A stretch of 64,000 nucleotides of DNA from a virus (lineage: Duplodnaviria; Heunggongvirae; Uroviricota; Caudoviricetes), in IMG/VR virus record IMGVR_UViG_2909314774_000001. One strand, given 5' to 3'. The notes beneath the pieces are model-generated. The model had not been told where the DNA came from. It made no database searches and was given only the letters and a program-made list of their open reading frames with translations. This document shows positions 4,818 to 56,130 of the stretch, piece by piece. The first letter of the stretch is position 1. The number at the start of each line of letters is the position of its first letter. Made by a program: the position numbers and the translations under genes.

Positions 4818-5339
4818 TTATTCTTCGAACAATTTTTCGATAGATTTTGTAGGATAGAACAAAGAACGCTCGTTGTTACCAACCAGCTGGATAAAGCCTA
4901 AACTTTTATAAAACGCCTTGGCTTTGTCATTTAACGCCTCAACGAAAAGTCCATGAATGCCTACAGCAAGAGATGCATTGTACACAACGCGCATTGCATG
5001 TGTTACAAGCATTGAGCCAAATCCTTGACCTTGAAGGGACTTGTCCAAAGCCAGCCTACCCAAAGTAACACTTGGAACATTCCGATAAGGAACCTTCTTT
5101 TGTTTGCTTCTTGAAGGTAAGGACTCCTTTTCAAAACAACTACCTGACAAAGTGTAATATCCTAACACTTTTGGCCTTTCTTCTTGAGTGCAAAGCACAT
5201 AAGCACGAAGAATTTTTCCCTCATGCTGCCTTTTTAAGTGGTTGGCTAAAAAGGCGTTTAGTGACTCTTCGCCGCAATCAAAACCGTTTAGATCATAATC
5301 TTTCTCTCCAGAGAAAATCTCTATCGTTGTATTGCTCAC
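4818..5339 (-). CDS. GNAT-family acetyltransferase toxin (TacT/AtaT-like)
   Basis: GNAT acetyl-CoA binding region (QGQGFGSML...); immediately downstream of a small RHH/DUF1778-like gene on the same strand, separated by 8 bp. Confidence 0.8.
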   Translation of the reverse strand: MSNTTIEIFSGEKDYDLNGFDCGEESLNAFLANHLKRQHEGKILRAYVLCTQEERPKVLGYYTLSGSCFEKESLPSRSKQKKVPYRNVPSVTLGRLALDKSLQGQGFGSMLVTHAMRVVYNASLAVGIHGLFVEALNDKAKAFYKSLGFIQLVGNNERSLFYPTKSIEKLFEE

Positions 5340-5346
5340 GAGTAAA

Positions 5347-5616
5347 CTACTCCATGCTTTTCAGACGATCAGCAGCTCGTTTCAGCTTGTCGTTCGGTGC
5401 CGGAGGATTGCTTATAGCGTCCATAACCAGATTCCAGGATTCTTCATTCAGAACTAGTCTACGGTGTTGCTCTATAACTTTCACGGCACGTTCAGATGCA
5501 CTGCTAACCATAAACTGAGTAATGCTCTGGTTAGACATTGCGGCAGCTTCCTCGATGATGCTTTTATCGTCATCGGTTAATCTCAAATCGATGCGCTGCT
5601 TTTTTAGTGCTGACAT
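5347..5616 (-). CDS. RHH/DUF1778-type antitoxin (TacA/AtaR-like)
   Basis: Start set at MSALKKQRIDLRLTDDDK with AGGAGG RBS upstream; partner of the downstream GNAT toxin. Confidence 0.75.
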   Translation of the reverse strand: MSALKKQRIDLRLTDDDKSIIEEAAAMSNQSITQFMVSSASERAVKVIEQHRRLVLNEESWNLVMDAISNPPAPNDKLKRAADRLKSME

Positions 5617-5934
5617 GTATTCCTCCTGATGGCCGTGATGTAGGAAGGCCATCAATCTCCTCTGTTCAAACTGAGTTTTCGACTCAAAAATTACTTTAAA
5701 AGGCTATAGCCCATTACGTGTGCATTATCAAATTGTGTACGGCATATCACCGTACTTGTAATATAGAGGTCATTGTTACTTTTTTCAACAGACAAATACA
5801 AGCTATGATTGCCAATTGTTAATCACAACCTACCATTTAACCTTTACACCGCAGCCGTAGGCATTTAGGCTATATCACATATAAGAAAACAAGTTGTTTC
5901 AGACGATAATTATATACGCAAAGGGAACTCTCCA

Positions 5935-6603
5935 ATGACCAAGATCTTTGTGGTTGGCGGCACAAAGGGCGGGCCTGGCAAATCCACCGTTGCCCAGCAA
6001 ATTGCCGTTTGCCTGAAAGTCAAAAAGAAGAAGAAGGTTTATATTACCGATATAGATATTCAGCGCACGACAACGAGCTGGTGTGAAGACCGTCGACAGA
6101 ACGAAGACCTTGAGCTGATTCCTTTTGCATACGTTCAGGATGACATCATTAAGCACCTAAAATCGCTTCAGGGTAGAGCTGAGTTTGTAGTGGTAGATGC
6201 CGGTGGCTTTGACTCCGAAATTCAGCGACAAGCGATGCTGATGGCTGACGTTATCATTATCCCGCTTCGTCCTAAGCGTCGTGATTTGAAATCTCTGCGT
6301 GACATTGATCCTATTATCGACAATGTTCGTAATGTAAACGATAAAGTGAAGGTCCGCGCGGTCATGAACCAGTGCCCGGCTTTGCCATCACAAGTGTCTC
6401 GCATTCTGGCGGCTAAAGAGATTGTCGAGACGTTTGGCATCGAGTCTGCGCCAGTCAATCTATATAACCGCAACGTCTATGATGATGCGGAAGAGTCTGG
6501 TCGTTCTATCTTTGAAATGACCGGTAGCGAGCGCGACAAAAAGGCGGAAGCCGAGTTTGAAGAATTTGTAGATTATCTGTTGAGTCTGGAGGAAGAAGAA
6601 TAA
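5935..6603 (+). CDS. parA: ParA-like partition ATPase
   Basis: Deviant Walker A GGTKGGPGKST near the N-terminus; followed by a small DNA-binding partner with a TAATG overlap. Confidence 0.85.
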   Translation: MTKIFVVGGTKGGPGKSTVAQQIAVCLKVKKKKKVYITDIDIQRTTTSWCEDRRQNEDLELIPFAYVQDDIIKHLKSLQGRAEFVVVDAGGFDSEIQRQAMLMADVIIIPLRPKRRDLKSLRDIDPIIDNVRNVNDKVKVRAVMNQCPALPSQVSRILAAKEIVETFGIESAPVNLYNRNVYDDAEESGRSIFEMTGSERDKKAEAEFEEFVDYLLSLEEEE

Positions 6604-6962
6604 TGTCCATGAAAATGGGTGACCTAGCAAAGCGCAAAGAGCCTGATGCACCGGCTAAGAACACAACTCCTTTGCGCCAACCAGTCAGACCACAGGGACG
6701 CCCGACTCGTGGCAAAGAGAAAATTAAAAGCCGCACAATGTCACTGGAGGACGAATACTTCGAACTGCTGGAGATGATGAAGTTCATCCCTCGCTTCGAG
6801 AAATTCACCCGCTCTGATGTGATTCGTGCTGCTATTTTCCATCTTGCGGAGAAGACACCGCAGGAAATCGAGGACATCGTGAAACTTAACGAGGCGATCA
6901 CAGCTGCCGATGTCACGATGCGTACCGATGAAATTAAACGCGAGTTGATGAAGAAAGGGTGA
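6603..6962 (+). CDS. Ribbon-helix-helix centromere-binding partition protein (ParG/ParB-like)
   Basis: Basic N-terminus and an RHH-like segment (SLEDEYFELLEMMKF...RSDVIRAAIFHL); translationally coupled to parA. Confidence 0.55.
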   Translation: MSMKMGDLAKRKEPDAPAKNTTPLRQPVRPQGRPTRGKEKIKSRTMSLEDEYFELLEMMKFIPRFEKFTRSDVIRAAIFHLAEKTPQEIEDIVKLNEAITAADVTMRTDEIKRELMKKG

Positions 6963-7013
6963 TTATATTGGGCGTTTGTTACGCCCAATATATGAGTTGA
7001 AGGATAGACACCA

Positions 7014-8720
7014 ATGGAATCGATAGAAGTATTTTTAAAAAATTTTTTGGACTCAGATCATCGGGTTGCTGTCATAAAAGGAAATTGGGGAGTAGGTAAA
7101 ACGCATTATTGGAATAGCTTTTATACTAAACATTCTAAAAAATTAGATTTTAATGCATATTCATATGTTTCTTTGTTTGGAATAAATTCTATTGGAGACA
7201 TTAAAAAAGCTCTTTATCATTGTGCCACACCAATTAATGAAAAGAAATATAAAGAACTGATTTTATCTGAAACGGATCGAACTATGATTCGTTATAGAAA
7301 TGGGTTTTGGGGATGGTTGAAATACAACTCCTTGTCAAAATTTTTAATACATTTTGGAAAGAACGATTTTTTTGGGTTCAAAACTGATAATCTGCTGTCA
7401 TCTCTTGAGTATAAATTTGTTAATAATTATTTGGTTTGCATTGATGATATTGAACGAAAAGGTAGTGCGCTAGAAATTAAAGAGATTATGGGGGTAATTG
7501 ATGAGTTGGCAAGAAGAAAAAATTGCAAGGTTGTTCTAATATTAAATGAAGATAACTTACATGAAGAAACTGCACAACAACAGTTTTTAGAGTATAGAGA
7601 AAAAATAATTGATGTGGAAATAAAATACGATCCCACGCCTGAGAAAAACTTAAGAAAAGTTTTTTATGAGACTGACCCTGATTTTCTTTTGTTAAAAAAC
7701 CTAGTAAATGATTTAAACATCAAAAACATTAGAATATTAAATAAAATAAAATCATCTCTAGTTATATTTAGAGATGTGCTAAAGTTAGCAGAGGATAAGG
7801 TTAGAGAAAGTTTTATTAATAGATTGGTCTTATTTTCAGTGGTTTACTATTTTGGTGTTCCTAGCGTTGATTATGCTTCATTTAAGGAGTCAATCAAAAA
7901 TATACATGCATTCGACTATATGTTAGATGATAAAGATGAAAAGGAAGAAGTTAACTCTGTATATTCATTTGTTAATAGCCTTGATGTTATTTATGAACGA
8001 GCAGAAAGTGCTTTCGATGATGATATAGATTTTTACCTTAAGAACGGTTATGTTTCTTCTGAAAGCAATATTCTAAATATAATAAAAGAAAAAAATGAAC
8101 AATATAGAGATAATAGGGTTTTATGTGAGGTTTATAAAATTTGGGATGTTTTTAGAAACTCTTTTAAAGATAATGAATCAGAGTTTATTTTTCAAATTGA
8201 GCGCGTAATTAACGATAGTCTGTTGCGTATACCAATTGGACAGTTCGTAGGTTTAATAAATGTCCTAATTAAATTGGATAGAGATTGTAATAATATTATA
8301 GAGGCATATGCAGATGCTTTTGTTAATAAAGAAAATGCGTATGCTACATTTAATTCTTTGCGAGTAGAGATCTTCGGAAATGAAGAATTAGGTTTCAGAA
8401 TTGAAAAAAAATTGAAAGATAGAAATCCAGATGACTATAACTTAGATAAAATTATAAAAAAAATAGCTGGTGGAAGATTTAACCATAGTGATGTGAATAT
8501 TCTTAACAGTTTTTCTAAAGATGATTACGTAAACTGGATATTATCCTGTGATCAGGATGCTTTGAATTTAGTAGAAGAGACTATGCTCAAGTTCAAGGGT
8601 ATGCAACACCCGACAGACGAACAGAAGAGCATCACTGATAAAGCAATAGAAGCTTTGGAGGAAGTTGCTTCAAAATCAACACTTAATAAGCTGCGTGTTA
8701 ATAAAATACTCAATCATTAA
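7014..8720 (+). CDS. KAP-family P-loop NTPase (PifA-like)
   Basis: Walker A GNWGVGKT at residues 22-29 and Walker B LVCIDDIERK; the gene is markedly more AT-rich than its neighbours. Confidence 0.65.
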   Translation: MESIEVFLKNFLDSDHRVAVIKGNWGVGKTHYWNSFYTKHSKKLDFNAYSYVSLFGINSIGDIKKALYHCATPINEKKYKELILSETDRTMIRYRNGFWGWLKYNSLSKFLIHFGKNDFFGFKTDNLLSSLEYKFVNNYLVCIDDIERKGSALEIKEIMGVIDELARRKNCKVVLILNEDNLHEETAQQQFLEYREKIIDVEIKYDPTPEKNLRKVFYETDPDFLLLKNLVNDLNIKNIRILNKIKSSLVIFRDVLKLAEDKVRESFINRLVLFSVVYYFGVPSVDYASFKESIKNIHAFDYMLDDKDEKEEVNSVYSFVNSLDVIYERAESAFDDDIDFYLKNGYVSSESNILNIIKEKNEQYRDNRVLCEVYKIWDVFRNSFKDNESEFIFQIERVINDSLLRIPIGQFVGLINVLIKLDRDCNNIIEAYADAFVNKENAYATFNSLRVEIFGNEELGFRIEKKLKDRNPDDYNLDKIIKKIAGGRFNHSDVNILNSFSKDDYVNWILSCDQDALNLVEETMLKFKGMQHPTDEQKSITDKAIEALEEVASKSTLNKLRVNKILNH

Positions 8721-8728
8721 TAGATTAT

Positions 8729-16424: not shown

Positions 16425-16499
16425 GATGGTGTAGCTCAGCGGTAGAGCAGTTGGCTGTTAACCAACTGGTCGGTGGTTCGAATCCACCCACCATCGCCA
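16425..16499 (+). tRNA. tRNA-Asn (anticodon GTT)
   Basis: Hand-folded cloverleaf: acceptor GATGGTG/CACCATC, anticodon loop CTGTTAA, T-loop GGTTCGAATCC, 3' CCA encoded. Confidence 0.85.
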
Positions 16500-16504
16500 A
16501 TTTA

Positions 16505-16591
16505 GGGGAGTTAGTCCGTAGGGGCAGCGGGGTAGACTGTAAATCTACTGTCATTGCGACTCGGGTGGTTCGACTCCATCACTCCCCACCA
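16505..16591 (+). tRNA. tRNA-Tyr (anticodon GTA), class II with long variable arm; D-arm non-canonical
   Basis: Acceptor GGGGAGT/ACTCCCC, anticodon arm GTAGA-CTGTAAA-TCTAC, T-loop TTCGACT, CCA encoded; the D-arm would not fold canonically by hand. Confidence 0.6.
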
Positions 16592-16595
16592 AATT

Positions 16596-16671
16596 GCCGG
16601 TTTAGCTCAGTTGGTAGAGCGCCTGCCTTGTAAGCAGGATGTCAGCGGTTCGATCCCGTTAACCGGCACCA
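16596..16671 (+). tRNA. tRNA-Thr (anticodon TGT)
   Basis: Acceptor GCCGGTT/AACCGGC, D-arm GCTCAGTTGGTAGAGC, anticodon loop CTTGTAA, T-loop TTCGATC, CCA encoded. Confidence 0.85.
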
Positions 16672-16762
16672 ACACAACAGGTAAGAGCATTGGGCGAATC
16701 GGCGATACTGACCACAAGCCCGTAAATCGATAGAGTCAGACCAGTGCTCTTACCGTTGTGAG
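16672..16762. repeat. Long imperfect hairpin C (candidate structured RNA)
   Basis: Arms CAACAGGTAAGAGCATTGG / CCAGTGCTCTTACCGTTG, ~47 nt loop; begins right after tRNA-Thr. Confidence 0.5.
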
Positions 16763-16807
16763 GAAGTGCAGCTCTTTGAAGCAACCAGAAGATAAGCATC
16801 TGGCTTC

Positions 16808-16892
16808 ACAACACAACGATAAGATCATTACGGTTAATCGTCGTTCATGTGCACAATGACTGGTCGAAAGGTAGTGATCTTACCGTTGTGAT
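16808..16892. repeat. Long imperfect hairpin D (candidate structured RNA)
   Basis: Arms CAACGATAAGATCA / TGATCTTACCGTTG, ~48 nt loop. Confidence 0.5.
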
Positions 16893-16990
16893 GAATGCAC
16901 AGGCTGATGTGCCGCAACTACAGTAGTGCGCGCTTTGCGGGGCTTGCTACAACCCTGTGTCGGAGTTCAGCACCGACCATCACAATAGCT

Positions 16991-17074
16991 GGAGAGTAGG
17001 GAGCATGGTGCTCAAGCGGTCTTGAAATCCGTCCCATTGTGCAAACGATGATGGTTCGATTCCATTACTCTCCG
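16991..17074 (+). tRNA. tRNA-Ser (anticodon TGA), class II; D-arm and anticodon stem imperfect
   Basis: Acceptor GGAGAGT/ACTCTCC with discriminator G and CCA; anticodon loop CTTGAAA; T-loop TTCGATT; long variable arm. Confidence 0.55.
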
Positions 17075-17075
17075 C

Positions 17076-17157
17076 CAGACACAGCGTTGAGCGGTTTGGC
17101 CTTTTAATCAACCAGATTAAGACTCCGCTAACATAAACCAGACCGCTCAACGCTGTG
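17076..17157. repeat. Long imperfect hairpin E (candidate structured RNA)
   Basis: Arms ACAGCGTTGAGCGGTTTGG / CCAGACCGCTCAACGCTGT, ~38 nt loop; directly after tRNA-Ser. Confidence 0.5.
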
Positions 17158-17234
17158 ATAGACAATTACGGCAGACGTTCTTAACCATAGCTTGCTAACA
17201 TCCTAGCAACACTTTTTTCAGCGCAAAATTCAAA

Positions 17235-17254
17235 GGGGCTTCGGCCCCTTTTTT
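17235..17254. terminator. Intrinsic terminator, probably bidirectional
   Basis: GGGGC-TTCG-GCCCC followed by TTTTTT on the + strand, with a T-rich tract on the - strand as well; separates the tRNA cluster from the convergent gene at 17270-18532. Confidence 0.7.
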
Positions 17255-17269
17255 GTTGAACAGTGCAAT

Positions 17270-18532
17270 TTACTTTGCATAGTCGCCCAATTTTAATATT
17301 TCGCGCTTATATTCATTAACCATGCTACTGGATTCAGTATAAATTCGATTTAAAAGATTATCGTTATCTTTATTTTCATTTATCTTAATTAGTGCTAATT
17401 TATATTCATAGTCATCAAATGCCACAATTAAATGGTGGCCTGGGATTATATCTTCGTCACTCTTAAAGTATATATCTTCAAGTATGTAATCTAGTTGATT
17501 AGATTTTCTTTTCTCGATGTAATCTTCAGCCATAGCTATTACATCATTCCTGTCATTTAACCTGTTTTTTTCGGAAGGCACATCTTCGTAATGTTGCACG
17601 ATTGAACAACCAATAAGGCGTGGGATGTAAACGTCAAAATGAGTAACTCTATCATTCGCGGTTTTAAGTAGTTCCTCAAAGTAGTTTCTTACATGTAAAG
17701 GCAACTTCTCAAAGTAATCATTAATTATAGGAGAACAAGGAGTTTTATAATTCATAAGAACCGACGGTACGAGCTTTGGGTGTCGAAACATCCAGTCCCT
17801 TTTAACGTCCGATGGAACATAATAACTTTTAATGATATTATCAAAATAATTTATCATTCGAGATTTGAATATTTTGTTGAATCTAAGGTTTATGAATGTA
17901 TCCAGATAAGGCATATTTGAATAAGCATCATCAAAAAATATTTCATCATTGAAAAAATCATATTTATTCAATAAACAACACAGTTTTTCCGAATTAATAT
18001 GTTCACAATAATCGATTTTTAATCCAAAGATAGCAATGATCAACTTCATCTGAGGTGGGATTTTAAAAATTAATTGTGACACATACGCTCTTTTTTCCTT
18101 GAGACATTCCCCATCAATATAAAATGAACCATCCACATACTCAAATATATTAATAATATGCTTCACATACTGTATTACCTCATGCTGTCTTACCAATGGG
18201 TAATATAGTCTATGTAACTCATCGCTGTTTAAATTAATTTTGTGTTTATCGATAATTTGTTTTGCAAGAAGACATAACTCATCATGTTGATTTAATAAGG
18301 AATCAAACCATTGTTTAAATGCACTCTTTCGCATTTCGAACAATGATTCAGTTGTTAATTGAAGGGCTGAAAAAGCTGCTTTTGCACTTTTTCTCGCTTC
18401 GTAGGCATTCCATGCTGTTGCTATAAAAGCAAATGCTGTAGCCAATGTTCCAACAGTTTGACCATTTAAAACAACCCAATCCCAAAAAATGACGGTGAGC
18501 AGTAGTATAATAATGAAAATTAAAAAAGGCAT
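17270..18532 (-). CDS. Membrane-anchored protein of unknown function (420 aa), AT-rich island
   Basis: N-terminal hydrophobic helices (FLIFIIILLLTVIFWDWVVL; TLATAFAFIATAW) then a large Asn/Tyr/Lys/Phe-rich soluble domain; base composition far more AT-rich than flanking genes. Confidence 0.6.
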   Translation of the reverse strand: MPFLIFIIILLLTVIFWDWVVLNGQTVGTLATAFAFIATAWNAYEARKSAKAAFSALQLTTESLFEMRKSAFKQWFDSLLNQHDELCLLAKQIIDKHKINLNSDELHRLYYPLVRQHEVIQYVKHIINIFEYVDGSFYIDGECLKEKRAYVSQLIFKIPPQMKLIIAIFGLKIDYCEHINSEKLCCLLNKYDFFNDEIFFDDAYSNMPYLDTFINLRFNKIFKSRMINYFDNIIKSYYVPSDVKRDWMFRHPKLVPSVLMNYKTPCSPIINDYFEKLPLHVRNYFEELLKTANDRVTHFDVYIPRLIGCSIVQHYEDVPSEKNRLNDRNDVIAMAEDYIEKRKSNQLDYILEDIYFKSDEDIIPGHHLIVAFDDYEYKLALIKINENKDNDNLLNRIYTESSSMVNEYKREILKLGDYAK

Positions 18533-18706
18533 GTATGTATTTCACTCTACTAACTATAAAATATTAGGCTAATGTTAACCAAACAATGCCTTAATTAATA
18601 GATTGATCGAGGCTTTAATAGCTTTATAATGCAGATTGCAAAGATAAGTATGCACACACCTATCTTCTTTGTAAGTAAAGTTGCATATCAATTCTATGAG
18701 GTAACA

Positions 18707-18952
18707 ATGACAATCACTATCTACGGACGAGATAACTGCTCATACTGCAAACGTGCGGTCGAGCTGGCGAAGCAACTAAAGGGACATGGCTACGGTGATT
18801 ATGAGTACATCGACATCACTACTGCCGGTATCGACAAGGAAAAACTTAGTGAAATTGTTGGTAAACCGGTAGAGACTATCCCCCAAGTACTGATCGATGG
18901 TCAACCGATTGGCGGATACACAGAACTGGCTGCATACGTCAGCACCCTCTGA
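18707..18952 (+). CDS. Glutaredoxin (NrdH/Grx-like)
   Basis: Thioredoxin-fold N-terminus MTITIYGRDNCSYCKRA with CxxC active site; start moved to ATG 18707, with GAGG upstream. Confidence 0.75.
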   Translation: MTITIYGRDNCSYCKRAVELAKQLKGHGYGDYEYIDITTAGIDKEKLSEIVGKPVETIPQVLIDGQPIGGYTELAAYVSTL

Positions 18953-18958
18953 TTTTAA

Positions 18959-18981
18959 CGGCTCACAGGAGCCGTTTTTTA
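18959..18981 (+). terminator. Intrinsic terminator
   Basis: CGGCTC-ACAG-GAGCCG followed by TTTTTT. Confidence 0.65.
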
Positions 18982-19163
18982 TTCCCACCAAACTCACTCC
19001 TGTTTCCCTTAAAATTCAAAAAACAACGTCTAAATGATTCCATACCTACTATGTATGGAATCATTGCTGAAAATGAGTTACTTTTACTCTTGATCCTATA
19101 AGAATCTATGCCTAATATACTGTTTACTTATACAGTGCATCGGCGTAACTCGGTGATTGTCAT

Positions 19164-33151: not shown

Positions 33152-34225
33152 ATGGCAAAAGGAAAATCCGCACTGGCACTTGCTCTGAAAAAGAAAATCG
33201 GTAGCAACGACGAAATTCAGAAAGTAACTCATTGGATTGATACAGGCTTTCCACCGTTAAACAAAGCTATTTCTGGTCGTTACGATGGCGGCTTCCCATG
33301 TGGTCGTATCGTCGAAGTATTCGGTCCTCCAAGTGCAGGGAAAACGTTCCTTGCAACAGCAGCGATGATCTCCGCTCAAAAACAAGATGGTCTGGCGGTA
33401 TTCCTCGATCATGAAAACAGTTTTGACGTTGGCCTGGCTGTAGCCAATGGCCTGAACGCAGATGAGGATGACGGTCAGTGGGTATACAAGCAGCCAGATA
33501 CCTTCGAAGACTCTGTAGAGTTGATCGGCACAATACTTAAATTGGTTCGTGATGAAGAGCTTATCCCCGAATCAGCACCTATCTGTATCGTGGCTGACTC
33601 TCTTGCGTCTATGGTTCCGAACTCCAAAGCCGAGAAGTTCGAAAAGATGGCTGAAGGCACTGCCAAAGACAAAGATCAGCTAAACATGAACGACAATACG
33701 GCACTGGCTCGTGCGACGAGTGCGAACTTCCCTACTCTGGCTTTGTGGGCACGCAAATACAACGCCTGCATCATCTTCTTGAATCAGGTTCGCACAAAAA
33801 TCGGTGTAATGTTTGGCGACCCTACTACGTCGCCAGGTGGAGATTCACCGAAGTTCTACGCTTCTGTACGTATCCGTCTTGGTGCATCGGTGATGAAGGA
33901 TGGTAAAGAGAAGATCGGCCAGGACGTAGGCGCAGAATGCATCAAAAACAAAGTTGCACCACCGTATGGCAAATGCACCTGGAAATTCTACTTCGATCCT
34001 ACTCGTGGCCTCGACGTTATCGAATCGCTCGTCGAGTACATGCTGGAAGAAGGATACCTGCCAAAGAACGCCAGCGGGCGAGTTGAAATTGGTGACAAGA
34101 AATACACCAAATCGCAGATCGTTGAGATGTATCGGGAGAAGCCACTGGCTGAAATCATTGCGGCTTTGCAGGCAATCGACGACCGAAGAGCAAAAGACAA
34201 CCCCACCGAGTCAGTAGAAGAGTAA
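33152..34225 (+). CDS. RecA-family recombinase
   Basis: Walker A GPPSAGKT and RecA-like core. Confidence 0.8.
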   Translation: MAKGKSALALALKKKIGSNDEIQKVTHWIDTGFPPLNKAISGRYDGGFPCGRIVEVFGPPSAGKTFLATAAMISAQKQDGLAVFLDHENSFDVGLAVANGLNADEDDGQWVYKQPDTFEDSVELIGTILKLVRDEELIPESAPICIVADSLASMVPNSKAEKFEKMAEGTAKDKDQLNMNDNTALARATSANFPTLALWARKYNACIIFLNQVRTKIGVMFGDPTTSPGGDSPKFYASVRIRLGASVMKDGKEKIGQDVGAECIKNKVAPPYGKCTWKFYFDPTRGLDVIESLVEYMLEEGYLPKNASGRVEIGDKKYTKSQIVEMYREKPLAEIIAALQAIDDRRAKDNPTESVEE

Positions 34226-36415: not shown

Positions 36416-36751
36416 ATGAAGGCCATCCCATTCGCGCTGTTGTTCCTTTCTTCGATCGTTGTGGCCGACACCACTGTTTATCAGTGTGAAATGTCTGTAG
36501 CCGACGTTAAGAATGGCGCTCTTACCGACGTCATAAAAGCACCATATGGAGCGATGGTCGTAGACAGCGGCGACCAGTTCTATGTTGTGCGTGACGATCG
36601 AGTGTTGTCATCCCCATATCTCACAAATCGTAATGGCAAATTAACCGGCGTCGGAGAAGACCACTTCGTATACAACAAATACAAGGGCTTCTATGGCGTT
36701 CACGCTTCTCAGCAAAGCTACCTTTTCGATGACTGCAAGGAGGTTGGATAA
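36416..36751 (+). CDS. Hypothetical secreted protein
   Basis: N-terminal signal peptide MKAIPFALLFLSSIVVA. Confidence 0.45.
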   Translation: MKAIPFALLFLSSIVVADTTVYQCEMSVADVKNGALTDVIKAPYGAMVVDSGDQFYVVRDDRVLSSPYLTNRNGKLTGVGEDHFVYNKYKGFYGVHASQQSYLFDDCKEVG

Positions 36752-36963
36752 TGGCATTAACACTGGCAGGTCTGGAAATCGAGAAAACAAGCGGCTACTG
36801 GCGTGCTAAGGGTTTCAAGCAGCCTGGCATTCTTGAGCGTCTGGAACGTGAAGATGGGTATATCGTCCACCAGCGGCGTGAATGGCGTATGTACGATCCA
36901 GAAACAGGAAAACTGACTACAAAAGCCGGAACACTTTGGGGTCTGTTGAAGAAAATTCACTGA
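36751..36963 (+). CDS. Hypothetical protein
   Basis: 70-codon ORF, start overlaps the previous stop. Confidence 0.35.
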   Translation: MALTLAGLEIEKTSGYWRAKGFKQPGILERLEREDGYIVHQRREWRMYDPETGKLTTKAGTLWGLLKKIH

Positions 36964-36972
36964 TAACACCAA

Positions 36973-37450
36973 CCACTGCGGTGAGTAGTCTGCTCACCGC
37001 ATTCGTATCCAGCTCATTATCCACTGTAGTCAGTAACAAAACCTTCCTACATATCTGCTAACCACTGTAGCGAGTAGACAGCCTTTCATTCGCATCAAAC
37101 AACCACTATGGTGAGTATTGGAGTGAGATGTCCAGCGGGTATCCACTATGGTGAGTAAGCCTTTGCTGTTTTCAGTGGATATCCACTCGCCACAGTGGAT
37201 ACGCTCAAAGATGAGGGCGACAACAACCACTATAGACAGTAAATTTTCCAAGATACCCAGTGACCACTAACCTCGCAGCCCTTGTTTCATCAGTGTTAGT
37301 GATCACTAACATTTAATTCAGTATTTGCATTCTACTGCCTACAGTGGTTATCAACAGATAACGATACTCACTATAGTGGATAGCGAATTACAGATATAAG
37401 TAAGGCTCACTACAGTGGATAGTGAGCCTTACTACTAACTACAGTGGTTG
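36973..37450. repeat. Iteron array downstream of repA (incA-like)
   Basis: At least six direct copies of the 15-mer CCACTRYRGNSAGTA (36973, 37021, 37062, 37103, 37144, 37227) plus inverted copies (37173-37201, 37339, 37375, 37406, 37439) and a perfect 16 bp palindrome GTTAGTGATCACTAAC at 37303. Confidence 0.8.
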
Positions 37451-37452
37451 GG

Positions 37453-38508
37453 CTATTTGCGAGTCTTTGCCTTGCGCAACTCTTCGAGAAGCGCCAGTTC
37501 TTCTTTACTCAACATGACCATTTTGCCTTCTTTTTCGTCAGGCACAACGTCGATAATGTCATCTTGATTCTCATCTGGGAGGCTATATTCCGTCTCATCA
37601 TTATCGATTTTTGTTGATATTTGTGCCTGGCGTAACTTTGGCCGCCTATAGTGGATGACGAAGTAGACCGAGTTTCCGCGCTTAACTTCCGTGTAATCGA
37701 GATATCCTATCTCTCGCAGCTGTTCCATAGCCTTTCTTACCGTCGCATTCTGAGTAATAGTGCGACTTGTCAGATTAAGTCTGGCGCGTAAACGGGCTAG
37801 TGATATTGGTGCCGGATCAGGCGGCAAACTTTCAATAAAAGTATAAAGCGCCTGAGCGGATTCTTTTCTTGAGAGTTCGTTTATAGCCCGGAGTTGCAGA
37901 AGAACCTTTTTGTCGAACTGGTAGAGTTCGAAAATCTTGGGATCTGCTTTCAGTTCGACCGTATCGTGCTTGACACTATATTTTGCCGTTTGCACAAGAT
38001 GCGTTACGTAAAACTCATCAGAGCCTTTGCTACGGAACGAGATGGTATTTGTGGCAATACGGCTTAGCGAACTGTCCAGGCGTTTGCGTAACTTCGCTGA
38101 TGACCTGGCGGTCGGAATGCCACACAGCCTTACAAACTCAACGAACGGCAATGTGACAGTATCGCCAACGACCTTGTGTTTGGCAAACGCGTGGATTATT
38201 CCCACCCACGTTTTAAAGTCGTTATCCATATCAAGCCGAAGGCCAGAGATCCTTATGTCTTCGTACCCTTCGGCTTTTGCCAGAGACAGCTGTTTGAGTT
38301 CAGCAGAGGCATCCATAGAGACCATTTGCCCCTTTCTTCCTCTGGATGTCGATTTCAGCGTCGGAACGAAGAGGCCCAGACGCATCAAAGCAACAGGCTG
38401 AACAGTGTTATTAGTGTTAGGAACCAACGTAACAACTTCGCCTGTCTTTTTATCTGTTTCTGAAAATGCTTCAACGATCGCTATGTTTTTATTGCCGTTT
38501 TCGCTCAT
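37453..38508 (-). CDS. repA: RepA-type plasmid replication initiator (P1 RepA-like)
   Basis: N-terminal ...[16 protein letters not shown]... and ...[25 protein letters not shown]... match my recollection of P1 RepA; flanked by iterons on both sides. Confidence 0.8.
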
Positions 38509-38551
38509 TCCAAATGTCTCTTGTTATTCGACGGCTTTGGTGGCCTTTGCT

Positions 38552-38671
38552 GATTACAGTGGATAGTAGCACTCATCACAGCGGTTATCCTACCGTCTAT
38601 AGTGGTTTTTCTCCTCTCTATAGTGGTTGCTTTGCTCCCTATAGTGGATTATTCGCTCTCTATAGTGGATA
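38552..38671. repeat. Iteron array upstream of repA (origin-proximal)
   Basis: Five direct copies of CTCTATAGTGG[AT]T-like repeats at ~21 bp spacing (38552, 38597, 38617, 38638, 38659). Confidence 0.8.
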
Positions 38672-38699
38672 TCGATCATGTCTGAAGGCAGATGGCACA

Positions 38700-38838
38700 A
38701 CGGTTTGAGGTTGGCGGGGATCTTATTGGGTCTTTATGGGTCTCTTTGGTTCTCTTTGTGATCTGAATTACTGGATCGGGCCTGTGGATAAAAATCAGAG
38801 GATTTCAAGAACAGGTAACTCTACTCTTCTGTGGATAT
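38700..38838. promoter_or_regulatory. Origin core: AT-rich GATC-containing repeats plus DnaA boxes
   Basis: GGATCTTATT / GGGTCTTTAT / GGGTCTCTTT / GTGATCT repeats (GATC at 38719, 38759, 38774); perfect DnaA box TGTGGATAA (reverse of TTATCCACA) at 38784-38792; near-consensus TGTGGATAT at 38830-38838. Confidence 0.7.
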
Positions 38839-38950
38839 TTAAGGACATAAGAATCATGACTAAGAGTAGAGTTGAGATATATCTATGTATATCAGTATGT
38901 TAATGAAGAATTAAGTCATTAAGTTATCCATAAAAGACAATGTGCTCTAC

Positions 38951-39053
38951 TCTCTACAGTGGATATATACAGCTCTCCAGAGTGGTTGTTTTACTCTTCA
39001 TAGCGGTTATTCAGCTCTCTACAGAGGTTTCTTTGCTCTCCATAGTGGATGGC
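38951..39053. repeat. Second upstream iteron array
   Basis: Five direct copies of CTCTMYAGWGGWT-like repeats at ~21 bp spacing (38951, 38973, 38995, 39015, 39037). Confidence 0.7.
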
Positions 39054-39091
39054 AACACCCTTTCAGACCAGTAACCGCAACGGCTAGAGGC

Positions 39092-39165
39092 GATCGGGGA
39101 TCTCTTTGGATCTTCTATTTGATCTTACTTGGGATCTCTTATTTGGATCTATCCAGTGGATAACT
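39092..39165. promoter_or_regulatory. GATC cluster with 13-mer-like AT-rich repeats and a DnaA-box-like site
   Basis: GATC at ~39092, 39100, 39111, 39121, 39133, 39146; repeats GATCTCTTTGG / GATCTTCTATTT / GATCTTACTTGG / GATCTCTTATTTG resemble oriC 13-mers (GATCTnTTnTTTT); AGTGGATAA at 39156. Confidence 0.6.
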
Positions 39166-39250
39166 GGGATAAGTAAAACAGGCAAATGCAGATTAAGGTA
39201 TGCCTAATGAGTTATCGTAGCATCGGCCAATAACTACTGAAAAAACGATT

Positions 39251-39895
39251 ATGGATCTAAAACGCACGCGCTGGGTTCGTCGTCTTGAGGACGGCTCCTA
39301 CACTATCGAATCAAATTCCAACCTGAATAAGCAGAAGTTACTTTGTGATATCTGCGGTATAGCGGCGAAGTGCCCGATCTACGAAACCAGAATTAAACTT
39401 GATAAGGCTGGTGTGAACTTTCATTTGAATAGTTGTATCAGGTACGTTCCATTGCTCGCATTTCGTAAACCGATCATCGGATTGGATGCGCCCTACTTCA
39501 ACACACTCCGTTCAGGAGTAACGTGGCGAGATCGTTTATCACCAGACAAACTGATTTGCCTTGTATCCGCAGATACAGGAAAAATCATTCGTTTTGGGAA
39601 AGTAGACAAGGTTTACTCAGGCCCAGTTGACGAGATGTTGCGGAAACACAGCCGGTTTAATCACCTCTGCATGGGTGGTGAGAAAATCGAGAAGGTTGAA
39701 GAAGTGATCCGCAAATCCTACGGACACTTCCTGACCAAAGATAGCCTGCTCACTGCAATCTACATCAGACATGTAAAACGTGAGTTCGACCTTGAATACC
39801 ATAGCGAAGAAGAACTGAACCTTGTCGATCCACGTCCTAAAGCTGGCGTCATAAGCATAAATGCAGCGCGTAAAAAGCCCACTGACGCGCTGTAA
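39251..39895 (+). CDS. Hypothetical protein
   Basis: 214-codon ORF next to the origin. Confidence 0.5.
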   Translation: MDLKRTRWVRRLEDGSYTIESNSNLNKQKLLCDICGIAAKCPIYETRIKLDKAGVNFHLNSCIRYVPLLAFRKPIIGLDAPYFNTLRSGVTWRDRLSPDKLICLVSADTGKIIRFGKVDKVYSGPVDEMLRKHSRFNHLCMGGEKIEKVEEVIRKSYGHFLTKDSLLTAIYIRHVKREFDLEYHSEEELNLVDPRPKAGVISINAARKKPTDAL

Positions 39896-44124: not shown

Positions 44125-44694
44125 ATGAGTAAAAAAATCAGCGTAGTTGGTGTTGATCCCTCAATGAGCAACTTTGGGCTTGCTGTGGGCACTTTAGACC
44201 TTGAGACGGACGAACTTGAGATTCACGGCCTTACTCTTGTTGAGACTAAAGCGGGGAGTAACAAAAAGACCGTTCGTGTGAACAGTGACGATCTGCGCCG
44301 CGCCAGTGAAATATGGCGTGTTGCGAAGCCAATCATTGATAAGGCAAATATGGTTTTTTGTGAGCTACCGGTTGGGAGCCAAAACTCTCGTTCGCAGACG
44401 TCTTACGGTATTTGTATCGGTGTACTTGCGTGTGTGGATAAGCCATTGATCCAGGTTACTCCAAACGAAATCAAGCATTTTGTCGGCAATAAACTTACTA
44501 CATCGAAAGAAGAGATTATCCAGTGGGCTACGAAAAAACACCCTAAAGCACCGTGGCTGCGTCGTAAGCAATCTGGACAGGATGTTCTCGTGAACAAAAA
44601 CGAACATTTGGCTGATGCGGTGGCTGCCATCCATACCGGTATGCAAACAGATCAGTTCCGCCAGGTGCGCGATGTTCTTAAGTCTCTCATTTGA
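44125..44694 (+). CDS. RuvC-like Holliday junction resolvase
   Basis: N-terminal VGVDPSMSNFGLAV resembles the RuvC catalytic start; placement with recombination genes. Confidence 0.5.
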   Translation: MSKKISVVGVDPSMSNFGLAVGTLDLETDELEIHGLTLVETKAGSNKKTVRVNSDDLRRASEIWRVAKPIIDKANMVFCELPVGSQNSRSQTSYGICIGVLACVDKPLIQVTPNEIKHFVGNKLTTSKEEIIQWATKKHPKAPWLRRKQSGQDVLVNKNEHLADAVAAIHTGMQTDQFRQVRDVLKSLI

Positions 44695-53185: not shown

Positions 53186-53907
53186 GCCTTTCAATCATTT
53201 CCTGCCTGTATTTAATACTTTTCCGCCTGATAGGTTTAGTCAAAATGTAGCCATCGAAACGCAAATGCAACTAAACAGAAGGAGACTTACATGAGTTCGG
53301 TTGAAAATGTAATGACAAATGATGATCTGGATGAGCTGACAGCCATGTTGCAATCACTTGATGAACCAGTAAAAAAAGCCGCACAGGTTGAAAATACTGA
53401 TGATATTGACGATCTGCTGCTCGGCCTCGATGCTGGCGTAGCCATGAGTTCTGATGATGTTGCCGAAGAACTGTTCAATGAAGAAAAAGCAGGTGATTTC
53501 AGCTCTGCTTTAAATGAGTTGGAGTTAGCGCATGAGCCTATAAACGTAATTAACGCTGAAAGTGTTGAATCTGCCGAAAACGAGCCAGAACAATTGGGAT
53601 TGATTGAGGTTGAAGAGTGTGTTGAGGTTAATGATGAATTAAAAGTTCAACAGTCAAATGATAGCAATACAAATAAAAAAGCTCGTGCTGCAAGAGGTCC
53701 TCGTTTTACTTTAAGTGATAAAGATGATTCGTTTTTCAATAAAGCGGGCTTAGAAAAAGATATTTTCTTAGACGCTTACGATAACGCGCCTGTCAAAGCA
53801 AAGGATAAGATATTAAACCTTCTTAATTGGTTTAGCGGAGGTCCAGATATTAGTGTTTACACGGTAATTTCCATGAGTGAAGTGGTCAACAAAAACTGGC
53901 CACCGAG

Positions 53908-55055
<1,148 letters not shown>

Positions 55056-55536
55056 TATGGCACCTGTGTTGTTCTGAGGTGAGCATATCACCTCTGTTCA
55101 GGTGGCCAAATTCAGTAAACCACTTCAGAGACACCTTCTCACAGAAAAGAAGGCTACAAGTAATAGTATTAAGATTGCTTTAATGAGCAATCCAGAAAAA
55201 CCGTATCCGCTTAACACTGCGTCAACTCAGGCTGGGCAAATGATGGCTGTATTTCCAGCGACAGGAATTGCCGTTAGAGGCGGTGGAAATCTAACATTGA
55301 ACGAAGAATCACCGATCGTTAAGAAGTTTGTCGCGGAGTACACTATTGGATGACGTTCCCCTACTGAAAATAAAGCCCATAGAGAGCTTTATAGTGCTGG
55401 GTAAGCCAATCACATACCCAGCACCACAAAAACGCGCCAGAGAGCTTCTCGTTTGCATTTCTGGCGCGTTTTATTTGATTGCCAGACATAAAATCAAATG
55501 CAAAAATAGGTATTTACTTACCTATCGAGAAAGAAG

Positions 55537-56130
55537 ATGATTGCAGCCGAAAAAATCAAACAGCGAAAGCGCGACAACTCTCTTCGTGACCTCTGGAGAA
55601 CACCTGACTGGCTGTTTTCTGCCATTCAACGTTATCTTGGAGTGACATTTGATGTTGACGTTGCCTGCAACAAGGACAATGCAAAGCTGCCTAATTTCAT
55701 AGGCGTTGAGCGTGATGCTTTGAAATCTGAATGGGGACAGCCAGGTACAATTGCCTTCCTCAATCCACCCTACTCCAAAATCTCCCCCTGGATTGATGCG
55801 GCTATACGTGAGCAGGCTCGCGGAGTTACAACAGTGATGCTAATTCCTCAATCCCTAGATACAAAGTGGTATGAGCGTGCAACAGAGTGTGCGAATGAGA
55901 CGATTATTCTGTCTGGTGGCCGCGTAGCGTTTGTCGAGCCTGACGTCAATCTGGGTCAGGTAGAAGTAAACATCAACCCAGGTGGCAGTATGCTCGTTGT
56001 TTTTCGAGGATTCTGTCAGGACGCTGGGCACTCTATAAGCAAGATCCCTTTGGACGTCATGAAAAGTCTGGGAGGGTATGATCCTGCGAATGTGATCAGG
56101 AAAAAAAGACCATCAAAGAAGGCTGCTTAG
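55537..56130 (+). CDS. DNA N6-adenine methyltransferase (phage Dam-like)
   Basis: Catalytic motif NPPYS with the upstream W.TPDWLF segment typical of small phage adenine methyltransferases. Confidence 0.7.
   Translation: MIAAEKIKQRKRDNSLRDLWRTPDWLFSAIQRYLGVTFDVDVACNKDNAKLPNFIGVERDALKSEWGQPGTIAFLNPPYSKISPWIDAAIREQARGVTTVMLIPQSLDTKWYERATECANETIILSGGRVAFVEPDVNLGQVEVNINPGGSMLVVFRGFCQDAGHSISKIPLDVMKSLGGYDPANVIRKKRPSKKAA

Follow-up and report, generated by a model that had tools for sequence, protein, structure and literature searches.

An already catalogued plasmid-maintenance origin in an SSU5/pHCM2/pLF82-type Escherichia coli phage-plasmid

Repeat arrays on both sides of a gene for a RepA-like protein raise the question of whether a viral sequence is kept as a plasmid, and of which of its elements start and restrain replication. 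Such a locus lies at 36962-39172 of the 64,000-nucleotide stretch of tailed-phage DNA analysed here (the window). A preliminary description had read it as a P1 R-replicon-like origin with the incC-repA-incA layout, and the order of elements matches the annotated P1 oriR map element for element. This origin reading was correct, yet the replicon is not new, because the same replicon is found in Cyrano (pLF82), IncFIB plasmids, SSU5, pHCM2 and pMT1. It is the already catalogued plasmid-maintenance origin of an SSU5/pHCM2/pLF82-type E. coli phage-plasmid. Over 2351 bp, identity to the phage-plasmid Cyrano and pLF82-like plasmids was 99.7-99.8%. The near-identical records are circular E. coli plasmids replicon-typed IncFIB, and repA together with its flanks is nearly identical to plasmids typed as IncFIB (pHCM2/pLF82 phage-plasmid). 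pHCM2 and pMT1, likewise typed IncFIB, showed ~83% identity to the replicon. The segment is very probably the maintenance replicon of an SSU5/pHCM2/pLF82-type plasmid-prophage, an iteron-controlled theta replicon of the P1-R/RepFIB family. Low-copy plasmid maintenance, also argued earlier, agrees with the near-identical circular IncFIB plasmids and with the 5.5 copies per cell measured for Cyrano/pLF82 (PMC9928086). The ParA ATPase and the toxin-antitoxin pair (TacA/GNAT) cited in its favour are both encoded in the window. The replicon comprises the following features.

36968-37452, mixed strands: incA-like control array of 12 iterons, from the matrix scan and cross-validated with the upstream-only matrix; starts at 36968 (-), 37016 (-), 37057 (-), 37098 (-), 37138 (-), 37162 (+), 37182 (+), 37222 (-), 37331 (+), 37363 (+), 37402 (+) and 37431 (+)
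37402-37430, minus strand: hairpin beginning 23 nt past the repA stop, with one iteron in its stem and loop
37453-38508, minus strand: repA, a 351-aa ORF for a predicted Rep_3-family (WH1+WH2) iteron-binding initiator
37638-37659, plus strand: weaker iteron-like site in the repA coding sequence (16.4 bits; codons for IHYRR)
38546-38673, plus strand: proximal upstream array of 6 iterons, spacing 21-22 bp
38674-38718: proximal spacer, by module alignment a diverged counterpart of the P1-type GC-rich spacer
38719-38782: proximal repeats of ~10-14 bp, with GATC at 38719, 38760 and 38774
38783-38791, minus strand: perfect DnaA box TTATCCACA, outermost element of the proximal module (the plus strand reads TGTGGATAA)
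38792-38945: inter-module segment, poorly conserved, with 25-30% GC at 38840-38960 and DnaA-like boxes ATATCCACA at 38830 and TTATCCATA at 38924
38946-39053, plus strand: distal upstream array of 5 iterons, spacing 21-23 bp, counterpart of P1 incC
39054-39091: distal GC-rich spacer, homologous to the P1-type spacer (against P1, SJ46, PhiR41_1 and Klebsiella)
39092-39154: distal GATCT-type repeats of ~11-13 bp, with GATC at 39092, 39099, 39109, 39121, 39133 and 39146
39155-39172, minus strand: two DnaA boxes in tandem, outermost elements of the distal module, TTATCCACT at 39155-39163 and a degenerate TTATCCCAG at 39164-39172

The RepA-like gene reported on the minus strand was confirmed as the 351-aa ORF, and the similarity to plasmid initiators expected of its product was recovered on profile search. 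Both Pfam domains scored above their curated cut-offs, Rep3_N at 42.2 bits (cut-off 22.4, E 1.3e-10) and Rep3_C at 22.6 bits (cut-off 21.1, E 1.3e-4). RepA was 47.5% identical to P1 RepA (E 1e-71), ~62% to the F/E. coli RepFIB initiators and 92% to the RepA of SSU5 and pMT1; this Pfam, P1 RepA and RepFIB homology places it among the Rep_3 initiators of P1-R/RepFIB replicons. Cyrano and the plasmid records annotate the same gene as repA. Searches of NCBIfam and of PDB sequences returned no match, so the family assignment rests on Pfam and on P1/RepFIB homology; we counted these missing matches against the favoured explanation. repA is the one Rep gene of the replicon, is intact and is 90-100% conserved across hundreds of plasmids. 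The iteron-like site within it is kept in all close homologues and in Rahnella. At one codon of this site, AGG is restricted to the clade whose iterons are of the present type, and the F, E. coli and Salmonella RepFIB genes have CGG.

Iterons were located with a 22-bp position matrix built from the repeats and run over the whole window. The scan returned 24 sites of 16.4-29.6 bits, all within 36968-39053, against a best score of 9.7 bits elsewhere, and their consensus is TACTCnCTAyAGTGGwT. The repeat features are real and far beyond chance, and both repeat mapping and the matrix scan confirmed arrays on both sides of repA. A matrix made from the 11 upstream sites only scored all 12 downstream sites at 13.7-29.0 bits, with a background maximum of 10.5 over 123,158 positions; a matrix made from the downstream sites scored the upstream sites at 9.3-26.0 bits, with a maximum of 10.2. 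Upstream and downstream iterons are one family, partly inverted downstream. The preliminary description had taken the two sets to differ in sequence and had suggested two specificities. Read on the plus strand alone, the outer downstream repeats (CCACTATGGTGAGTA) do look unlike the upstream ones (CTCTCTATAGTGGAT). However, ~7 downstream sites lie on the other strand, both sets are reverse complements of one consensus, each matrix finds the other set far above background, and only one Rep gene is present. The cross-validated matrices refute the idea, and two different specificities are extremely improbable. Handcuffing, the other arrangement suggested, would not be unusual: the standard model for P1 and RepFIB already pairs arrays that share a specificity in this way.

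Downstream of repA, where six or more repeats had been noted, the array stands but its count is 12, with about 5 sites on the plus and about 7 on the minus strand. The four iterons adjoining repA point the same way as those upstream, and the outer five are inverted with a spacing of ~41 bp. Equivalent arrays in SSU5, pMT1, pHCM2 and Enterobacter plasmids hold 13-15 sites. Mixed orientation combined with a single specificity is the arrangement of incA and of the E-K repeats. The hairpin next to the repA stop folds as RNA (37380-37460, minus strand) into a 15-bp stem at -27.7 kcal/mol (z = -5.6). It is kept in 6 homologues, in which the arms show a single change, one that still allows a G-U pair on the repA-sense strand, and we propose that it may act as the repA terminator. 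The only match in a terminator scan, at 39096-39115, falls within the GATC repeats and is likely to be spurious. Beyond the array the DNA encodes small hypothetical proteins on the opposite strand. An Rfam scan of 36500-39600 gave no match and so no sign of an antisense-RNA-controlled replicon.

Upstream of repA, two blocks of five repeats at ~21 bp had been described. The distal block does have five; the proximal block has six, and direct iterons at 21-23 bp precede the gene in both. The proximal iterons probably act as the repA operator, because the repA promoter must fall within the region that they cover; P1 PrepA is located inside the equivalent iterons. A sigma-70 promoter scan for repA gave only weak matches at 9 of 12 positions (7 found, 3.9 expected), the best of those in the proximal iterons running from 38675 to 38648 on the minus strand. 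The absence of a convincing sigma-70 promoter was counted against the favoured explanation.

Both modules end in DnaA boxes. The perfect box had been placed at 38784, one nucleotide off its actual start. The window holds two perfect boxes, and at least two occurred in 10 of 100 shuffled sequences; a single perfect box is not significant alone and draws its weight from position and conservation. Homologues have TTATACACA at this place, which fits TTWTNCACA. In the distal module, TTATCCACT is identical to the second P1 DnaA box, P1 reads CTTATCCACATTATCCACTGG at the homologous place, which is annotated as a DnaA-binding feature, and the homologues have TTATTCACA. Outer DnaA boxes and GATC repeats precede the iterons here as they do in P1, in alignment with the annotated P1 DnaA and Dam features. 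An oriC-type (DnaA-only) chromosomal origin was rejected: each module has just one or two DnaA boxes, and the locus includes a Rep gene as well as 24 iterons. GC-skew and cumulative-skew profiles showed no inflection at the origin, the skew being positive throughout and tracking gene orientation. This missing inflection counts against the favoured explanation.

The two GATC clusters reported earlier are both present, with periods of ~10-13 bp, and the proximal one is degenerate. No other 60-bp stretch of the window is as dense in GATC as that of the six distal sites (39092-39146); unrelated stretches reach at most 3, against a window mean of 4.2 per kb. The number and spacing of the six sites are invariant in 6 homologues, and the P1 annotation marks Dam sites at the corresponding position, 7, 10 and 11 bp apart. 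We propose 39092-39154 as a candidate methylation-controlled unwinding region. The GATCT-type repeats resemble oriC 13-mers only in the way that those of P1 do. The proximal cluster has 3 GATC sites plus GGTC/GGTT variants, its inner units reading GACCC/GACCC/GAACC in repA orientation, and this GATC-poor state is kept in SSU5, pMT1, pHCM2 and Enterobacter (93% identity) as well as in Rahnella and Pantoea. The AT-rich DNA between the modules was considered as a conserved unwinding element and rejected, as its AT-richness is not kept in homologues.

All origin elements recur at the same positions in the ~83%-identity homologues (SSU5, pMT1, pHCM2 and Enterobacter), so the repeats expected in homologous loci are indeed conserved there; the distal upstream array is kept in all homologues. 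Against the SSU5 group, the proximal GAnCC repeats were 93% identical and the distal ones 78%, the proximal iterons 89% and the distal ones 85%, and the proximal spacer 74%. The inter-module segment was lowest of all segments at 64%, and both modules are conserved well above it. By alignment, the origin core is present twice in tandem, each time with DnaA box, GATC repeats, spacer and iterons; the copy farther from repA is canonical, and the proximal one is GATC-poor yet conserved. The duplicated core is common to a monophyletic RepA subclade, and a single core is present in P1, in F and in all other relatives examined. In Rahnella and Pantoea, whose plasmids are not phage-plasmids, the distal copy is again canonical and the proximal one GATC-poor. 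For the upstream region, 334 plasmid records cover at least 80%, the remaining matches listed cover at most 25%, and no single-module deletion variant was found among the matches listed. No description of a duplicated core was found in the pMT1 and pHCM2 literature searched.

By analogy with P1 and RepFIB, we infer a working model of replication control. Upstream of repA, the iterons at 21-bp spacing would be occupied by RepA monomers and the boxes at the outer ends by host DnaA, and the two proteins together would open the adjacent GATC-repeat region. Dam methylation and hemimethylation of that region, with SeqA sequestration, would gate re-initiation. RepA on the gene-nearest iterons would repress the repA promoter, while the 12 downstream iterons would hold the copy number at a few per cell through RepA titration and handcuffing with the origin iterons.

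Of the two cores, the distal copy (38946-39172) is our leading candidate for the main initiation site, a tentative choice that we put at slightly below an even chance; the proximal copy (38546-38791) would then serve mainly as repA operator and as an extra RepA-binding control array. The choice is made because the distal copy keeps the full P1-like set of six invariant GATC sites, TTATCCACT and a homologous GC spacer, because it is the canonical copy in Rahnella and Pantoea too, and because 39062-39172 is shared at 92% with PhiR41_1, whose only core it is. The proximal module may nevertheless be a functional origin and no relic, as it is better conserved than the distal one and has the sole perfect DnaA box. 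Both modules could be active, as two adjacent RepA/DnaA-dependent sites that differ in Dam/SeqA sensitivity (6 GATC against 3). Each is conserved well above the DNA between them and has kept five or more iterons along with a spacer, repeat units and a DnaA box; the duplication is retained across a monophyletic clade reaching Rahnella and Pantoea, and the matches listed (334 covering at least 80%) include no single-module variant. However, the inner proximal repeat units have no GATC in any member, P1 origin function depends critically on its GATC heptamers, and an operator or control role could also account for the proximal conservation. We consider joint activity unlikely.

The proximal module could also be the real origin, like P1 incC, with the distal one either left over from cassette recombination or serving as an accessory array for control or incompatibility. 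The P1-like position of the proximal module directly upstream of repA, its sole perfect box and highest conservation, and the recombination breakpoint exactly at the distal-iteron edge argue for this assignment. The invariant number and spacing of the distal GATC sites and the canonical distal features of the non-phage Rahnella and Pantoea plasmids argue against it, and it appears quite improbable. Finally, the whole replicon could be a relic in an element maintained by its own phage replication genes, since the window encodes a full phage replication protein set (helicase, primase, Pol III alpha and ligase). Against this, repA is intact and highly conserved, all iteron arrays are conserved, and pMT1 carries the replicon yet presumably lacks much of the phage backbone. 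Incompatibility exerted by the homologous pMT1 replicon is also on record, a clone of it being listed as curing pMT1 (Ni et al. 2008, tabulated in PMC6199537). A relic is very improbable. The duplication may be an old, selectively retained innovation of a RepFIB subclade (pLF82/SSU5/pHCM2/pMT1, the Rahnella megaplasmid and the Pantoea plasmid) whose copies have divided jobs and which is coupled with a RepA-iteron specificity cassette. The jobs might be split between a Dam-gated distal origin and a Dam-poor proximal origin or operator, or between two origins used under different methylation states; the element encodes a Dam-family methyltransferase of its own. This reading is possible but doubtful.

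The cassette itself is suggested by PhiR41_1, whose flanks are 99% identical left of 36961 and 92% identical right of 39062. The recombination breakpoint coincides with the edge of the distal array, and the joints lie within ~10 bp of the outermost iterons, so that the shared DnaA/GATC host-factor part would be reused. RepA with all its iterons (36962-39061) thus appears to behave as a swappable specificity cassette among SSU5-like phage-plasmids, which bears on how phage-plasmids switch incompatibility group while keeping their backbone. The replicon marks the window as a plasmid-prophage and is mostly of housekeeping value. An exact map of its iterons, Dam sites and DnaA boxes, previously un-annotated, can serve replicon typing, vector design and curing by incompatibility in pLF82/pHCM2/pMT1-type elements, Y. 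pestis and S. Typhi plasmids among them. The duplicated core and the cleanly bounded RepA-iteron cassette offer small, testable additions on iteron-replicon evolution.

Compared with P1, the order and orientation of tandem DnaA boxes, GATC repeats, GC-rich spacer, five 21-bp-spaced iterons, repA and mixed-orientation array is the same, and P1 incA likewise has 3 gene-proximal sites in origin orientation plus 6 inverted ones. The P1 iteron is ATGTGTGCTGGAGGG, in contrast to the consensus given above. P1 has one origin core, 9 downstream iterons and a RepA of 286 aa, whereas here there are two tandem cores, 12 downstream iterons and a RepA 65 aa longer, which extends beyond the aligned core on either side and has an acidic, coiled tail at its C terminus. 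No par operon adjoins the replicon here: no parA-parB-parS block lies right downstream of the incA-like array, and the sole ParA-type ATPase in the window, at 5935-6603, is ~31 kb away. That distance, unlike P1, was counted against the favoured explanation; it affects the likeness to the P1 gene neighbourhood, not membership of the replicon family.

RepFIB (F/P307/pO157), with BCDD'D'' repeats upstream of rep and E-K downstream, has the closest characterised initiator. It shares the upstream origin iterons and downstream control iterons (PMC11983097) and the same DnaA-box and GATC-repeat region; its upstream iterons go with the origin, and its downstream block alone exerts incompatibility (PMC11983097). 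The F, E. coli and Salmonella RepFIB replicons differ in their single origin core and iteron type ATAAGCTGTA. The same replicon family occurs in SSU5, pHCM2 (S. Typhi) and pMT1/pFra (Y. pestis), at 83% nucleotide and 92% RepA identity and with an identical architecture, down to both origin cores, the six distal GATC sites and the in-gene iteron-like site. These differ from the present replicon only by drift at the sequence level, in the larger downstream arrays, a proximal box TTATACACA in place of TTATCCACA and divergent inter-module DNA. The PhiR41_1 (E. coli) and Klebsiella ST13-OXA48phi12.3 type has the same backbone, DnaA boxes, GATC repeats and spacer, but its RepA is 46-51% identical, its iteron is GTATGCTGTCAGCGGT, and it has a single origin core in an intergenic region of 320 bp, compared with 742 bp here.

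A profile search of the RepA-like protein found the plasmid-initiator families Rep3_N and Rep3_C of Pfam, both above curated thresholds. Over residues 40-293 it shares 47.5% identity with the RepA proteins of P1 and P7 (E 1e-71); its identity to RepB-family initiators from the RepFIB replicons of E. coli and Salmonella, F among them, is 61-65%. The preliminary description placed iteron arrays, putative RepA-binding repeats of ~22 bp, on both sides of this gene, and matrix and repeat searches recovered both:

37453-38508, minus strand: repA, 351-aa ORF (ORF call)
36968-37452, seven on minus and five on plus: 12 downstream iterons (matrix scan)
37638, plus strand, inside repA: one weaker iteron-like site (matrix scan)
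38546-38673, plus strand: six proximal upstream iterons (matrix scan)
38946-39053, plus strand: five distal upstream iterons (matrix scan)

The matrix (22 columns, from 21 copies) was scanned over all 64 kb on both strands. It yielded 24 sites of 16.4-29.6 bits, all within 36968-39053, and the best score elsewhere in the 64 kb was 9.7 bits. The consensus is TACTCnCTAyAGTGGwT. A repeat finder and TRF agreed on a 21-bp period for the upstream arrays and dispersed copies downstream; spacing is 21-23 bp upstream and ~41 bp in the outer downstream array. A matrix built only from the 11 upstream sites detected all downstream sites at 13.7-29.0 bits (background maximum 10.5 over 123,158 positions), and the reverse test, with a downstream-built matrix on the upstream sites, likewise succeeded. 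The reported difference in sequence between the two iteron sets is therefore an artefact of one-strand reading.

The in-gene site (37638-37659, plus strand) is conserved and covers codons ATC CAC TAT AGG CGG (IHYRR). AGG is confined here to the clade with iteron CCACTATAG; in F and the RepFIB replicons of E. coli and Salmonella, the identical peptide is specified with CGG CGT or CGG CGA. The site may either function in RepA binding or be coincidental. A hairpin at 37402-37430 (minus strand; 15-bp stem, -27.7 kcal/mol, z -5.6) begins 23 nt past the repA stop, carries an iteron within its stem and loop, and is kept in homologues apart from a single G-U-compatible change. The hairpin may terminate repA transcription, and binding of RepA could modulate this.

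The origin core occurs twice in tandem, at 38546-38791 (proximal, directly upstream of repA) and 38946-39172 (distal), with ~65% identity over 257 aligned columns. This duplication is the sole non-standard feature of the replicon. The perfect upstream DnaA box reported earlier, TTATCCACA, is present, one base away from its reported position, at 38783-38791 (minus strand), and is by itself not significant. The only other perfect box in the window lies outside the replicon at 44433-44441 (minus strand). Two upstream GATC clusters had also been described, and both were found. The distal one (39092, 39099, 39109, 39121, 39133, and 39146) is the densest in the window, with six sites in <60 bp; the runner-up among unrelated stretches has three, and the window-wide density is 4.2 per kb. 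The proximal one has sites at 38719, 38760, and 38774, with GGTC/GGTT variants between them.

A Rahnella aquatilis megaplasmid (RepA 78% identical) and a Pantoea plasmid (71%) likewise have two cores upstream of their RepA homologues. Their distal copies have tandem DnaA boxes and five GATC sites, and their proximal copies have two or three GATC sites and GAACC-type inner units. One core was found in all other relatives examined: P1, SJ46, PhiR41_1, a Klebsiella SSU5-like phage, F, E. coli and Salmonella RepFIB, and an Acinetobacter plasmid. A neighbor-joining tree of RepA places the two-core replicons in a single monophyletic group. With the upstream region alone as query against the plasmid database, 334 records covered at least 80% of it and the other matches listed at most 25%; no single-core deletion variant was among the matches listed. 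We therefore read the tandem core as a probable old duplication that has since been retained. Of the two, the distal copy has the canonical form; the proximal copy is better conserved and carries the perfect DnaA box. Our best guess, a tentative one, is that the distal copy serves as origin and the proximal copy as operator and control array. In the Pantoea sp. BRR-3P plasmid, the distal iterons (-520 to -410 upstream of repA) have drifted to ATGACTGCTrTAG / ATGACCAATATAnAG, and the proximal iterons read ACCGCTrTAGnGAGTA. This drift hints that two arrays within one replicon may diverge.

Comparison with PhiR41_1, an E. coli SSU5-like phage-plasmid, delimited the replicon independently. Identity is 99.0% up to 36961 and 92.2% from 39062 on, with nothing alignable between these sharp breakpoints (36961/36962 and 39061/39062); PhiR41_1 RepA is only 46-49% identical and its iteron is unrelated. 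The joints, 36962-39061, reproduce almost exactly the extent in the preliminary description. The first iteron begins at 36968 and the last ends at 39053. Since the breakpoints lie just outside the outermost iterons, RepA and all its iterons behave as one exchangeable specificity unit. The right joint separates the distal iterons from their GC spacer, and in the plasmid-database search ~500 Klebsiella and E. coli plasmids matched the upstream region only at 39062-39244. The DnaA-box/GATC/spacer part of the distal origin belongs to the shared backbone.

Six homologues were compared: SSU5, pMT1 (pG8786), pHCM2, two Enterobacter plasmids, and a divergent E. coli plasmid. In all six, every element is present at the same relative position, including both upstream arrays, the proximal GATC-poor repeats, both DnaA-box sites, and the in-gene site. 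The six distal GATC sites also recur with identical spacing, and downstream iterons number 13-15. Identity to these homologues was 0.93 for the proximal repeats, 0.89 for the proximal iterons, 0.85 for the distal iterons, 0.78 for the distal GATC region, and 0.64 for the inter-module segment (38792-38945). A passage of PMC4543863 citing Lindler 1998 describes the pMT1 replication region as repA plus accessory elements, and one of PMC6199537 citing Ni 2008 reports curing of pMT1 by incompatibility using a pMT1 replicon clone.

Over the 2.35 kb around the replicon, identity is 99.7% with Escherichia phage Cyrano (the E. coli LF82 phage-plasmid pLF82) and 99.7-99.8% with circular plasmids of ~100 kb from E. 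coli, E. albertii, and Shigella, which are typed as IncFIB and as non-mobilizable; it is ~83% with Salmonella phage SSU5, S. Typhi pHCM2, Yersinia pestis pMT1-type plasmids, and Enterobacter plasmids. Cyrano is present at 5.5 copies per cell (PMC9928086). Neighboring genes form an SSU5-like phage-plasmid set (tail fibre, lysis, helicase, primase, Pol III alpha, RecA, SbcCD, RNR, integrase, and repressor). A plasmid-stability cluster (4818-6962) lies ~31 kb from repA, and a methyltransferase gene was also found:

4818-5339, minus strand: GNAT toxin
5347-5655, minus strand: TacA-type antitoxin
5935-6603, plus strand: small ParA-type ATPase
6603-6962, plus strand: 119-aa ORF, RelE/ParE-like in the Cyrano annotation, without a Pfam match
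55537-56127, plus strand: phage Dam-family N6-adenine methyltransferase (Pfam PF05869, E 2.5e-38; TIGR01712)

The Dam-family enzyme may let the element methylate its own GATC-rich origin without host Dam. With 97-99% identity, the window is a mosaic relative of Cyrano and distinct from it. Three segments (6963-8724, 16501-19015, and 53877-55128) had no megablast match >300 bp to the corresponding regions of Cyrano, the closest named relative, and are mosaic differences. Four tRNA genes lie at 16425-17077 (plus strand; Asn-GTT, Tyr-GTA, Thr-TGT, and Ser-TGA). Of these, Asn, Thr, and Ser alone are annotated in the Cyrano record; the window thus differs by an additional tRNA-Tyr and a local rearrangement. 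Its recA (33152-34225, plus strand) is an uninterrupted 357-aa ORF and therefore an insertion-free allele; the annotated recA of Cyrano and pEHP91H1-1 measures 2340 bp and holds an additional ~1.26-kb insertion, itself annotated as a LAGLIDADG homing endonuclease, at a point corresponding to window ~33341-33343.

Our analysis establishes homology, anatomy, conservation, plasmid state, and low copy number. By analogy, from P1 record annotations, the general iteron model (PMC6090056), and work on Dam/SeqA and chaperones in P1, RepA monomers would load onto the phased upstream iterons and DnaA onto the outer boxes. The GATC-repeat region between them would open, and its methylation state would gate re-initiation. 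RepA at the gene-proximal iterons would repress repA, and the downstream array would cap copy number through titration and pairing with origin iterons.

The P1-R/RepFIB family, the IncFIB type of pHCM2/pLF82/pMT1, and repA are all documented in databases and the literature; the finding is thus not new. The fine map, duplicated core, and cassette joints were not annotated in the records examined or described in the searchable literature; the original pMT1/RepFIB papers lay outside that search, and we therefore claim no priority for them.

In the GenBank P1 record, a DnaA-binding site is followed by five Dam sites, five incC iterons within which PrepA lies, repA, and then nine incA iterons. In repA orientation, the distal module aligns directly with the P1 origin (window, CTTATCCCAGTTATCCACTGGATAGATCC...GATCCCCGATCGCC; P1, CTTATCCACATTATCCACTGGATAGATCC...GATCCCTGATCGTT). 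P1 incA has three repA-adjacent iterons in incC orientation and then six inverted; the window's downstream array has four repA-adjacent in origin orientation, a mixed trio, and five inverted. The proposed incC-repA-incA layout holds in detail, with order and orientation matching the annotated record. Together with RepA homology, this alignment and the incA-type orientations bear out the structural interpretation in the preliminary description. For RepFIB, PMC11983097 links the upstream iterons to the origin and describes displacement of a resident FIB plasmid by the downstream block on its own, in keeping with handcuffing.
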